DNA of 64,000 nucleotides, from IMG/VR virus record IMGVR_UViG_3300022602_000031, positions 116,050 to 180,049 of that record; one strand, written 5' to 3'. The position numbers and the translations under genes are program-made. The DNA comes from a virus. Below the pieces are notes generated by a model. It searched no databases and had not been told where the DNA came from. It saw only the letters and a program-made list of their open reading frames with translations. Positions 27,629-30,412 of this stretch are shown in pieces. Position 1 is the stretch's first letter. The number at the start of each line of letters is the position of its first letter.

Positions 27629-27636
27629 TATAAATA
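27629..27636 (+). promoter_or_regulatory. T4-type late promoter TATAAATA
   Basis: Exact T4 late consensus upstream of the Cys-rich peptide gene. Confidence 0.7.
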
Positions 27637-27657
27637 GTGTATTATAAGAGATAATTT

Positions 27658-28089
27658 ATGACACTACCAAGTTCAGGACAGATATCATTTGGCGACATTG
27701 ACAACGAAATTGGCGCGGCTAACCAATCGTTGAGTATGAGCTGGCTTGATACTGTTACAAAAACTTCCGTTGGTGGTAGTGTTGTTGCTTTAAATGATTT
27801 AAATGATCTATACGGATTGGCCTACTATCAAAATAACGTGTGGAACGCAAATTGTAATAATGATAATGCTTCCAGTCCTCCAAATTGTAACTGTGGCGAT
27901 CATAATTGTAGTAATTGCGTAAATTGTAATGCTATTAATTGTGCCAATGGTGATAGCCAACCATATCTACAACCAAATTGTAACTGCTATCAAACCAATG
28001 GTTTAAATTGTACATTTAATTGTACTACTAATAGCACCACTGTTAATTGTAATTGTAACTGTACTTTCTGTGCCTGCGCTTGCTGGTAA
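27658..28089 (+). CDS. Asn/Cys-rich putative precursor peptide with phage virion-protein-like N-terminus
   Basis: MTLPSSGQISFGDIDNEIG leader; 17 Cys in the last ~78 aa, 14 as NC dipeptides; ends CACACW. Confidence 0.75.
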   Translation: MTLPSSGQISFGDIDNEIGAANQSLSMSWLDTVTKTSVGGSVVALNDLNDLYGLAYYQNNVWNANCNNDNASSPPNCNCGDHNCSNCVNCNAINCANGDSQPYLQPNCNCYQTNGLNCTFNCTTNSTTVNCNCNCTFCACACW

Positions 28090-28104
28090 AAATCTAAGGG
28101 TTCT

Positions 28105-29553
28105 ATGAAATTTGAAATATATGCGGAACGTAACGCTAAAGATACTGCTGTCTTTTATTACGACAATCAAACAAATGTATTAACTAATCAACAAGGCGAA
28201 GAATTCAAATTTCCTGAAATGCCTACGTTTGCTGAACAGCCAACCAAGCCTTTTAGCAAAGAAGATCCTTTGCGTAAAAGCCGAGATGTTAATATGATTA
28301 AAATACAACTTGGTTTAAGTTGTAATTACAGTTGCGATTACTGTAGTCAAAAGTTTGTCGAACGTCCTCCTGAAACTAGTAAGAAAGATATTGACGCCTT
28401 TATGGCCAAGTTGGATGTGCTCAACATCACAGAAGAACGTGGATTACGTGTAGAGTTTTGGGGCGGTGAGCCGTTTGTATATTGGAAAACTCTTAAACCT
28501 CTAGCCGAAGCATTTGCTGAAAGATACAGTCATTGGAAAAAGCGTCCACAGTTTAGTGTAGTTACCAATGGCAGTTTGCTTACACGTGAAATCTGTAGCT
28601 GGTTATACTATATGGGATTTGGTGTAGGTATCAGCCACGATGGTCCTGGACAGGCAGTACGTGGTCCGGATCCTTTTGAAGATCCAGAACGTAAAAAAGT
28701 CATATTAGAATTTTACAAAATCATGGCGCCGCAGAATCGCATTAGTTTTAATGCTATGATGAATCGTAACAATACTAGCCGTCGCGCAATTAAAGAATAT
28801 TTTGTAGAGCTCACTGGAGATCCTAATGTTAAGATCGGCGAAGGTGGATTCATTGATGCGTATGATCAAGACGGTGCTAACAGTAGTTTAAATACCTTAG
28901 ACGAACATTTTGCCTATCGTCGACAAGCATTTAATGATTTGTATACCACAGGTAAGAATTTACATTTTGATACGGTTTATACTAAACTAGATGCTTTTAT
29001 TAGTAGCTTACTAGCACATCGTCCAGCCGAACTAGTTGGACAAAAATGCGGTATGGAAGAACCTGGCACAGTTGCATTAGACTTAAAAGGTAATATTGTT
29101 ACCTGTCAGAATGTCAGCGTAATGGAAACCAGCAAGAACGGCGAAGCTCATTTGGGTGGTAACTTAGACGACTACGACAACGTAGCACTCAAAGGAGTTA
29201 CACATTGGAAATCTCGTACAAATAAAGTAAATTGTGCTGACTGCCCTGTTCTTCATTTGTGTAAGGGTAGTTGTATGTACCTAGATGGTGAGTTTTGGGA
29301 TATCACCTGTAACAATGCCTACTCTGATAATATTCCTTTGTTTGCTATGGTTCTGAATGTAGTTACCAATGGATATATTCCTGTTACTATCAAAGCCGAA
29401 GGCTTACCATTGGAGCGACAAGATATCTGGGGTACAGTATACAAACACGAAGAAACTACAAAGAAAAAAATTATCCCAATTAAAGTAATATCAGAAAAGA
29501 TAGGTACACTGGATGATATCGAAGTGTACGGTAAATCAAGGGTTGAACTATGA
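28105..29553 (+). CDS. Radical SAM/SPASM peptide maturase-like enzyme
   Basis: CNYSCDYC, FWGGEP; SPASM motifs C..DLKGNIVTC and CADCPVLHLCKGSC...C. Confidence 0.92.
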   Translation: MKFEIYAERNAKDTAVFYYDNQTNVLTNQQGEEFKFPEMPTFAEQPTKPFSKEDPLRKSRDVNMIKIQLGLSCNYSCDYCSQKFVERPPETSKKDIDAFMAKLDVLNITEERGLRVEFWGGEPFVYWKTLKPLAEAFAERYSHWKKRPQFSVVTNGSLLTREICSWLYYMGFGVGISHDGPGQAVRGPDPFEDPERKKVILEFYKIMAPQNRISFNAMMNRNNTSRRAIKEYFVELTGDPNVKIGEGGFIDAYDQDGANSSLNTLDEHFAYRRQAFNDLYTTGKNLHFDTVYTKLDAFISSLLAHRPAELVGQKCGMEEPGTVALDLKGNIVTCQNVSVMETSKNGEAHLGGNLDDYDNVALKGVTHWKSRTNKVNCADCPVLHLCKGSCMYLDGEFWDITCNNAYSDNIPLFAMVLNVVTNGYIPVTIKAEGLPLERQDIWGTVYKHEETTKKKIIPIKVISEKIGTLDDIEVYGKSRVEL

Positions 29554-29861
29554 CAAACATTAATACACCAGAAATACAGGCACTAGTTGATTACTTAAAA
29601 TCTCATGTTGCTATTATAACAGACATTGATGTAGCGGCAGTAACTGATCCAGAATGGCTAGCCCACGCAAATTGTGATCGAGCTATTACTTTAAACGTCC
29701 ATATGACATTCCAAAGCCCAACACAACCTGGAAGTATTTTCTTTGGAGTCCCGGCCGCATTGTACGATGATCCTGCTATGTATCCGTTAGTTTTACAAAA
29801 CTTATATAACTTAATGAATGCCAAGCCTGGCACTATGAACTACGAAGATTTACGTAACTAA
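29550..29861 (+). CDS. Hypothetical protein coupled to the radical SAM gene
   Basis: ATGA overlap; 103 aa. Confidence 0.65.
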   Translation: MTNINTPEIQALVDYLKSHVAIITDIDVAAVTDPEWLAHANCDRAITLNVHMTFQSPTQPGSIFFGVPAALYDDPAMYPLVLQNLYNLMNAKPGTMNYEDLRN

Positions 29862-29863
29862 CA

Positions 29864-30412
29864 ATGAACCTACAACCTTTATTTGCGACACCGCTATGGT
29901 CTACTACCTATGACGATGCCGATGAACTCAATCAAAAATTATTAATCGAAGGTGAATCATATGATTTTATGCAAGATTATTTTGATTTGCCCGGCGAAGG
30001 CATAGCCGAACTTAAAGAACGTATTACCAATGAACTAACTAGTATGGTCAATGAATTAGCATGGCCTATTAGTAGTTTAACTTTTAGCGGTCGGCAAAAT
30101 CCCATAGCCCCGGGCAACAATGACACACCACATCATCATCCAGATCACGAATTAGTCGGTGTGTACTATGTAAAAGTACCTTCAGTCAGTGGAGACATAC
30201 TACTACACGATCCGCGTGGTAGTGTTCCTAAGTTTTGGGAAGATCCAAACGCAGTAACAGAGTCAGAGTACCGTTCAGCAAGACCCTATCATCGCATAGA
30301 ACCTGTACCAGGAATGTTATTATTTTTTCCTGGATATCTAATACACAGCGTAGAATTTAATCGTAGCAATGATCTACGTGTCAGTATAATTCTTAGCATA
30401 AACATAGACTAA
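29864..30412 (+). CDS. 2OG-Fe(II) oxygenase (TIGR02466-like)
   Basis: PHHHP..VGVYYV..SGDI..DPR..FPGYLIHSVE..RVSI. Confidence 0.85.
   Translation: MNLQPLFATPLWSTTYDDADELNQKLLIEGESYDFMQDYFDLPGEGIAELKERITNELTSMVNELAWPISSLTFSGRQNPIAPGNNDTPHHHPDHELVGVYYVKVPSVSGDILLHDPRGSVPKFWEDPNAVTESEYRSARPYHRIEPVPGMLLFFPGYLIHSVEFNRSNDLRVSIILSINID

Follow-up and report, generated by a model that had tools for sequence, protein, structure and literature searches.

Radical S-adenosylmethionine (SAM) enzymes with a SPASM domain are known to crosslink small secreted peptides and one bacterial enzyme subunit, QhpC, and two of these enzymes, PapB and QhpD, both form non-alpha Cys thioethers. To our knowledge, the only described radical SAM enzyme that links Cys to the beta-carbon of Asn is NxxcB. 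This streptococcal enzyme joins Cys to an Asn three residues upstream in a beta-thioether (PMC9389541). In T4-like phages, Iyer et al. described cyanophage arrays of tandem 2-oxoglutarate (2OG) oxygenases and Trp-halogenases, which their account of the arrays predicts to modify peptides and for which it proposes secondary metabolites (Iyer et al. 2010, PMC2938197). Here we analyze a gene cassette in the virus record IMGVR_UViG_3300022602_000031, in which a gene for a small Asn/Cys-rich protein (the NC protein) is followed by genes for a radical SAM/SPASM enzyme and 2OG oxygenases. The window analyzed is a stretch of 64,000 nucleotides (positions 116,050 to 180,049), the final 64 kb of this 180-kb IMG/VR viral record (∼50% complete by CheckV; 40% G+C), and it encodes a T4-type terminase, a UvsW-like helicase and 23 tRNA genes. 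Our reading, to which we assign a probability of about 0.5, is that phages install covalent side-chain crosslinks in receptor-facing fibre tips by means of dedicated radical SAM/SPASM enzymes and 2OG oxygenases, that these enzymes act on an Asn-Cys run at the C-terminus of a fibre or else on a separate small NC protein, and that such systems are widespread, occurring in prophages of Burkholderiales as well as in phages from freshwater and other environments.

The cassette is a tightly packed co-directional gene run from 27658 to 33713, and is listed here together with the oxygenase gene and the motif directly upstream of it.

27035..27619, + strand: upstream 2OG-Fe(II) oxygenase (listed open reading frame (ORF) start 26930); PF13759, 61 bits against a cut-off of 27
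27629..27636, + strand: late-promoter motif TATAAATA, 21 nt 5′ of the ATG of the NC gene (27658)
27658..28089, + strand: NC protein, 143 aa, presumed substrate; N-terminal domain at residues 1-62, Asn/Cys-rich domain at residues 66-143
28105..29553, + strand: radical SAM/SPASM enzyme, 482 aa, presumed crosslinking maturase; starts 15 nt past the NC stop codon
29550..29861, + strand: accessory "slot" protein, 103 aa, single unit; 4-nt ATGA overlap with the radical SAM gene, translationally coupled
29864..30412, + strand: 2OG-Fe(II) oxygenase; PF13759, 60.9 bits against a cut-off of 27
30414..31598, + strand: Trp-halogenase-family flavoenzyme, optional tailoring gene; PF04820, 305 bits
31591..33066, + strand: B12-binding radical SAM enzyme, optional tailoring gene; PF04055, 46 bits (cut-off 29.5); PF02310, 26.3 bits, under its cut-off of 32.1
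33063..33713, + strand: third 2OG-oxygenase-like gene, which ends the co-directional run; PF13759, 25.6 bits, just under the cut-off; phrog_81 (2OG oxygenase), E 4e-13

A preliminary description of this DNA, made from its letters, had proposed a T4 late promoter ahead of a 143-aa Cys-rich ORF, a full radical SAM/SPASM gene 15 bp past that ORF, a coupled 103-aa ORF, a TIGR02466-like oxygenase downstream and a second oxygenase directly upstream. All of these elements were recovered at the positions listed. The downstream oxygenase scores just under the TIGR02466 cut-off (62.2 against 62.5 bits).

The radical SAM enzyme is complete in its cluster motifs. It passes the radical SAM model PF04055 (30.7 bits against a cut-off of 29.5) and the SPASM model TIGR04085 (34 bits against 27), and both the CxxxCxxC motif (C73/C77/C80) and the full seven-Cys SPASM pattern (C315, C334, C377, C380, C386, C390 and C402) are invariant in the five enzymes aligned. 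The seven-Cys pattern corresponds to two auxiliary 4Fe-4S clusters. The best full-length NCBIfam matches of the enzyme are PapB (NF047865, 76.7 bits) and then QhpD (TIGR03906, 71.8 bits), and its closest solved relatives are 8vpo_A and CteB, which have ∼90–100 residues ahead of the core, compared with ∼55–60 here.

Among these relatives, QhpD resembles what we propose for the cassette in that a radical SAM/SPASM enzyme joins several Cys through thioethers to side-chain carbons, and does so in a protein subunit, QhpC, and not in a short secreted peptide. A flavoenzyme partner, QhpG, is found there too, the halogenase-family enzyme of the cassette being weakly similar to it, and the QhpD model TIGR03906 aligns with our enzyme over its full length. 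In contrast, the presumed substrate of the cassette is unrelated to QhpC, being Asn-rich rather than Asp/Glu-containing, phage-encoded and fibre-linked, and there is neither a QhpE protease nor a QhpF exporter. The PapB-type ranthipeptide maturases and SCIFF/CteB are likewise radical SAM/SPASM enzymes that act on Cys-rich substrates, and PapB is the best match and CteB one of the two closest structures. However, the cut-offs of these families are missed, the N-terminal extension of the enzyme is shorter, and what would be modified is either an entire tail fibre or a protein of 143 aa that contains a folded domain; compared with the SCIFF peptide (six-Cys-in-forty-five), the NC substrate is unrelated in length and pattern. 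The NCNC runs of the cassette can be read as overlapping NxxC motifs as in the NxxcB/NxxcA system, a likeness set by description and not by sequence, but there a single link is made in a short peptide under quorum control, whereas here there are up to 17 Cys in a phage structural context. The sections of Iyer et al. on the phage arrays, in turn, name no radical SAM/SPASM enzyme, Asn/Cys-rich substrate or tail-fibre link. A literature search found no paper describing the cassette. Enzymes of this class, and the notion that their substrates are rich in Cys, were known already; the novelty lies in the proposed use of tail fibres as substrate, in the Asn-Cys code and in the spread of the system among phages.

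The NC protein contains 28 Asn and 17 Cys, and all of the latter lie within residues 66–142, 14 of them preceded by Asn, with CACACW as the C-terminus; the composition first described for the last 78 residues proved exact. A word-indexed search returned 120 homologues (27–90% identity) and a full profile search of 1.84 billion representatives returned 130 cluster representatives of the family. Homologues that look complete are matched from their first residue onward, the exceptions being a few entries that are truncated or carry inserts. Over 69 aligned homologues, the Cys and Asn positions are conserved, 8 columns being invariant and 23 nearly so, and the Asn ahead of each Cys is kept along with the Cys. 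The conserved N-terminal part reads M-T-L-P-x-S-G-x-I-x-x-S-D-x-N-x-E-x-G, and the Cys-rich part reads G-N-C-N-N-G-N-C..N-C-N-C-G-N..C-x-N-C..N-C-x-N-C in its first half and continues as D-x-Q-x-W/Y-L-Q-P-N-C-N-C-x-C-T-Y-N-C..N-C-x-C-x-C. Because this is a conserved, phage-associated family with a position-conserved Asn/Cys domain, the ORF is no chance low-complexity tract.

An AlphaFold2 model made with the family alignment gave a predicted local distance difference test (pLDDT) score of ∼70–80 for residues 1–62 and for a central segment (97–108), against which the N-terminal 62 residues pack, and of 25–40 for the two Cys-rich stretches; low values are as expected there if the structure of these stretches depends on modification. 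Since the model combines a confident N-terminal domain with two unstructured stretches, the NC protein is probably no classical leader-core peptide, and the earlier view of its N-terminus as a leader gives way to that of a folded domain. No PDB entry matched the fold of the model at a Z of 2 or more, and the search of BFVD gave one family member and otherwise weak matches. Two weak structural leads point to Gp38 adhesins (PF05268), one from BFVD (probability 0.69 over 53 columns) and one from the Atlas (template-modelling score 0.50), and the models behind them are poor. Separately, a Gp38-like Gly-rich protein is encoded in the tail region of the same genome, and one NC member (L035:311-1402) has a ∼230-aa Gly-rich insert with GGxGG repeats between its N-terminal and Cys-rich domains that recalls the Gly-rich motifs known from such adhesins. 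No match to the NC protein was found by tblastn against 50,697 phage records, so the family proper was not found among the cultured-phage records searched. Longer proteins sharing words with the Cys-rich part were not found either, which is weak evidence because such forms exist in IMG/VR. A candidate NC relative in the virus's own genome (L002, E 0.003) was dropped as an unrelated ORF beside sugar-transferase-like genes. The window also encodes its own tRNA-Asn(GTT) and tRNA-Cys(GCA) (24792-24866 and 26203-26280), inside the 23-tRNA array upstream of the NC gene; near a gene with 20% Asn and 12% Cys, these may reflect supply matching or coincidence.

The NC gene and the radical SAM gene travel together. 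On all five long metagenome contigs with distant NC homologues, the next gene encodes a radical SAM enzyme of ∼480 aa that is 57–69% identical to that of the window. In IMG/VR, relatives of the enzyme are encoded on at least 517 contigs, and the best 80 loci, in which the enzymes are 57–72% identical to that of the window, were examined for an NC partner. A hidden Markov model (HMM) of the NC family matched a same-strand ORF in 75 of these 80 loci, and after removal of redundancy 50 loci remained, 48 of which were informative and 47 of which contain both genes. Three layouts recur. In Type I, that of the window, an optional oxygenase gene is followed by the NC gene (∼135 aa), the radical SAM gene, the slot gene and, optionally, halogenase, B12-binding radical SAM or oxygenase genes. 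In Type II, the radical SAM gene precedes the NC gene (∼300 aa), with none to two membrane desaturase-like genes between them, and a small ORF and an oxygenase follow. In Type III, a long fibre gene and a fibre gene with a Peptidase_S74 (S74) module lead into the NC, radical SAM and slot genes. The Type II NC proteins (L057:7465-8373, L073:5206-6105 and others) have a C-terminal domain that is conserved (CNCSKIICAKLYEFGLM...ADQ.YG.WLRK...) as well as a hydrophobic end, and their genes, 3′ of the radical SAM gene, stand beside one or two membrane fatty-acid-desaturase-like genes. These proteins matched no Pfam or PHROG family, and an Atlas search with their C-terminal domain gave unnamed viral clusters only. 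From the constancy of the pairing, we consider it highly probable that the NC protein serves the neighboring radical SAM/SPASM enzyme as its dedicated substrate.

Several members of the family connect this pair to tail fibres. NC-family members differ only in what follows the Cys run, which is either nothing, an S74 module, a Hint domain or a domain of no known family (SKIICAKLY). In ∼15 of the 120 homologues from the first search, PF13884 (Peptidase_S74) comes straight after the Cys run, with a junction of the form ...CACAC-SD..LK, and in the Hint-fused members the junction is ...C-N-S-CFPAGT. Both S74 and Hint are self-removing modules, and S74 is an intramolecular chaperone typical of trimeric tail fibres and spikes. 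The module is absent from the NC protein of the window, and no S74 match was found in the examined part of its genome. The PHROG long-tail-fibre matches of the S74-fused homologues extend past the S74 part, an extension that we treated as compositional because the corresponding regions of the S-SCSM2R and VH7D fibres are not Cys-rich.

The closest relatives of the radical SAM enzyme in cultured phages (∼45% identical) lie in the tail-fibre modules of Ralstonia phage RSP15 and Achromobacter phage JWF. In JWF, where gp030 is the radical SAM enzyme, gp028 consists of tail-fibre repeats followed by ...RQNCNCDCNCNCS, which holds the run NCNCDCNCNCS, and then by a Hint domain from Cys308; in RSP15, the "side tail fiber" has the C-terminus ...NTNCQCGN. 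A scan of 185,579 bacterial species genomes yielded 145 contigs with relatives of the enzyme, of which 80 (34–65% identical) were kept, mostly from freshwater Burkholderiales (Limnohabitans, Polynucleobacter, Polaromonas and Rhodoferax) and including Burkholderia paludis MSh1. A same-strand ORF with an NCxCxC run was present in 61 of the 63 informative loci. This run lies at the very C-terminus in 57 of the 61 (e.g., ...YNFNCNCNCACDCCC*), before a Hint domain in 2 and before the SKIIC domain in 2. Of 1724 plus-strand ORFs, 57 have the C-terminal form of the motif, and these are the partners; of 1579 minus-strand ORFs, none has it. Here too, Asn is conserved before nearly every Cys. Among 32 representative partners, tail-fibre PHROG families top the tally (the two commonest with 12 members each), and many of the partners from bacterial genomes share the N-terminus of JWF gp028. 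Lack of a Cys-rich ORF beside homologues of the enzyme had been named beforehand as the observation that would speak against a substrate role; such an ORF was present in nearly all informative loci of both the viral and the bacterial-genome sets, an outcome in favor of that role.

Gene neighborhoods point the same way. In Paraburkholderia sp. BCC1886 (L097; an isolate, 286-kb contig), the gene for a 151-aa NC protein and the radical SAM gene stand between five tail-fibre genes and a tail-fibre assembly gene, in what is probably a prophage, and in a further locus (L005) the pair lies behind gp8, a 2124-aa protein and an S74 fibre. The suggestion that the product is a virion appendage and not a secreted peptide is therefore supported by the S74 and Hint fusions, by the NCNCNC-ending fibres beside relatives of the enzyme and by the Paraburkholderia fibre block. 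Homology, fusion or neighborhood links the NC family as a whole to tail fibres, but direct homology does not do so for the window's own protein. Taken together, we judge association of the NC protein with the virion to be likely.

The late-promoter motif ahead of the NC gene also recurs. Although TATAAATA is not enriched in the whole window (6 found versus 8.5 expected), 19 of 45 loci have an exact copy within 100 nt upstream of the homologous NC gene, and most of the loci listed have a TAAATA core ∼26–41 nt 5′ of the start codon. Where the upstream motif is missing, the NC gene is mostly directly behind a fibre gene or the radical SAM gene. The position of the motif upstream of the NC gene is thus conserved in relatives, and transcription from it is predicted.

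Oxygenases are part of the conserved set, PF13759 members being common beside the pair or between its two genes, and the halogenase and B12-binding radical SAM genes are optional. Homologues of the downstream oxygenase (29864-30412) were found in 56 of 88 loci, of the third oxygenase-like gene (33063-33713) in 29, of the Trp-halogenase in 33 and of the B12-binding radical SAM enzyme in 17; homologues of the upstream oxygenase lie directly 5′ of the NC gene in many Type I loci. In the loci from bacterial genomes, PF13759 was detected in 18 of 53 scanned genes between the fibre and radical SAM genes. The 103-aa slot protein matches an HMM of the proteins in the same slot of 36 loci (25.7 bits). 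Its AlphaFold2 model (pLDDT 89) is an alpha/beta sandwich whose best match, to ribosome hibernation factors (Z 5.4), rests on a common alpha/beta arrangement and is uninformative, and we could not recognize in it a recognition element (RRE) of the kind used for peptides that are made on the ribosome and modified after translation (RiPPs). Among 146 genes neighboring the cassette in IMG/VR loci, 10 belong to the AspH-like family PF05118 (aspartyl/asparaginyl beta-hydroxylases), whose presence near an Asn-rich substrate is suggestive, and a few are sulfotransferase genes.

Comparative genomics thus establishes the pairing, the positional conservation of Asn and Cys, the tail-fibre context and the conserved late-promoter motif, and from these we infer a thioether chemistry, an acceptor residue, hydroxylation and presence in the virion, as follows. 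Late transcription of the tightly packed genes would proceed from the TATAAATA motif. The N-terminal ∼62 residues of the NC protein and its central D-x-Q-x-Y/W-L-Q segment would fold into a small domain, leaving the two Asn/Cys-rich stretches unstructured, and the radical SAM/SPASM enzyme would then join Cys sulphur to side-chain carbons. Thioethers, unlike disulphides, can form in the reducing cytoplasm in which virions are assembled. By analogy with PapB, QhpD and CteB, the Cys thiol would bind an auxiliary cluster and a 5′-deoxyadenosyl radical would abstract a side-chain hydrogen, leading to a C-S bond, a mechanism that is established for enzymes of this type (summarized in PMC9389541). 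The likeliest acceptor may be the beta-carbon of the conserved Asn, which is the most economical choice because a conserved Asn adjoins every Cys, because an (NC)n run consists of overlapping NxxC motifs and because NxxcB provides a precedent. The oxygenases, including the AspH-like PF05118 proteins, may hydroxylate Asn or other residues, and in the window's phage the halogenase-family and B12-binding radical SAM enzymes may add further modifications. The product would be a covalently knotted, redox-insensitive and protease-resistant knob, serving as a fibre-tip or adhesin module on the virion. In the more distant phages and prophages, the same enzymes would act on the NCNCNC run at the extreme C-terminus of ordinary tail fibres. 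Thioether formation by the enzyme, argued from its relatives, is in our estimate slightly favored, and the statement as a whole, that the conserved triad of Asn/Cys run, radical SAM/SPASM enzyme and PF13759 oxygenase is a fibre-tip maturation system, has somewhat better than even odds.

Several observations weigh against this crosslinked fibre-tip model. First, the cassette is outside the tail module, the structural genes being upstream of the window in the same genome record and the neighbors of the cassette being auxiliary genes and tRNAs. Second, neither the NC protein nor its N-terminal domain matches a Pfam or PHROG family, and a resemblance of this N-terminus to known virion proteins, noted in the preliminary description, was accordingly not verified by sequence. 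Third, an RRE-like (PqqD-like) recognition domain was detected neither in the N-terminal extension of the radical SAM enzyme nor in the 103-aa protein. Fourth, one viral locus (L020:6001-7446) encodes an enzyme 67% identical to that of the window with no NC-type ORF within 6 kb on either side, the sole clear exception among viral loci. Fifth, the hydrophobic C-terminus and desaturase-like neighbors of the Type II proteins suggest that a membrane is involved at some step, which a simple fibre model would not predict. Finally, the enzyme scores far below the equivalog cut-offs of the thioether synthases (PapB, 76.7 against 340; QhpD, 71.8 against 453), and to the SCIFF maturase model (TIGR03974; 41.7 against 425) it aligns by its N-terminal core only, so other radical chemistry may be at work.

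This last point leads to the alternative that fares best, in which the Asn/Cys run is a metal-binding or disulphide-rich structural domain, its CxC motifs binding metal or an Fe-S cluster (as do the HxH iron sites of T4 gp37) or forming disulphides, and the radical SAM enzyme carries out another reaction, such as conversion of Cys to formylglycine, epimerization or the formation of C-C or ether links. CxC and NCxC runs at fibre C-termini could line a threefold axis, the anSME and DynA models align with the enzyme over its full length (49.6 and 52.4 bits), and every thioether-synthase equivalog cut-off is missed. Nevertheless, the top full-length models are Cys thioether synthases, the enzyme is nearly always beside its partner, and Asn is conserved before nearly every Cys. 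We know of no reason to expect a conserved Asn before Cys in metallothionein-type or disulphide-ladder domains. The near-constant pairing and the conserved Asn together argue that the run is an enzyme substrate and not a mere metal site, and we consider this alternative unlikely. A released RiPP, in which an N-terminal leader would serve the radical SAM enzyme and a crosslinked Cys-rich core would be cleaved off and escape when the cell lyses, to act as a toxin, signal or metal scavenger, has the RiPP-like layout in its favor (short Cys-rich ORF, radical SAM/SPASM enzyme, oxygenases, halogenase and B12-binding radical SAM enzyme), as well as the placement of the window's cassette away from tail genes and the fact that a lytic phage needs no exporter, but it has a slim chance given that neither a leader protease nor an exporter was noticed in the cassettes of the 50 non-redundant loci or in a Pfam tally of the 146 neighbors, that no RRE was detected, that residues 1–62 form, in the model, a folded domain packing on the central segment of the supposed core, that some relatives are fused to self-cleaving tail-fibre modules, that distant relatives of the enzyme are partnered by the C-terminus of full-length tail fibres, and that the gene pair occurs inside tail-fibre blocks.

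Tail fibres decide the host range of phages. If crosslinked fibre tips are what these cassettes make, they would be the first case of enzyme-installed radical crosslinking of a virion structural protein and, if confirmed, a new kind of post-translational modification of virions. Such crosslinking would account for the stiffening of a Cys-rich tip in the cytoplasm, which is too reducing for disulphides, and part of the long-puzzling oxygenase and halogenase arrays of T4-like phages would gain a function. The crosslinked knobs as scaffolds, and their maturases as new enzymes, would be on offer for peptide engineering. Because versions of the cassette are carried by a cultured phage, Achromobacter phage JWF, and by the genomes of the isolates Paraburkholderia sp. 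BCC1886 and Burkholderia paludis MSh1, our reading is directly testable.

Two further features border the cassette on its 5′ side.

26932-27021: tRNA-Ser
27022..27029, + strand: late-promoter-like motif TATAAATA (T4-type), just 3′ of tRNA-Ser and 5′ of the upstream oxygenase

Because the listed start of the upstream oxygenase (26930) overlaps tRNA-Ser, its true start is probably the ATG at 27035. The promoter role of this copy of the motif is uncertain, since it lies only ∼5 nt from that ATG. On the 3′ side, an AMP-binding (adenylation-like) gene (33706-34995, − strand) converges on the end of the cassette with an 8-nt overlap, and the next gene (35158-36471, − strand) encodes a 437-aa protein without a family; for neither was a homologue detected in the related loci (BLAST, E 1e-4 or better). 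Elsewhere in the window are a second radical SAM gene and a second Trp-halogenase-family gene (9357-10493 and 18456-20060), the former encoding an enzyme with a SPASM-like segment at its N-terminus (PF13186, residues 13–74), ahead of PF04055. The window also encodes three paralogous DctP-family solute-binding proteins (22658-23605, 38090-39097 and 40038-40994) and a GroEL-type chaperonin (52031-53650; PF00118, 267 bits).

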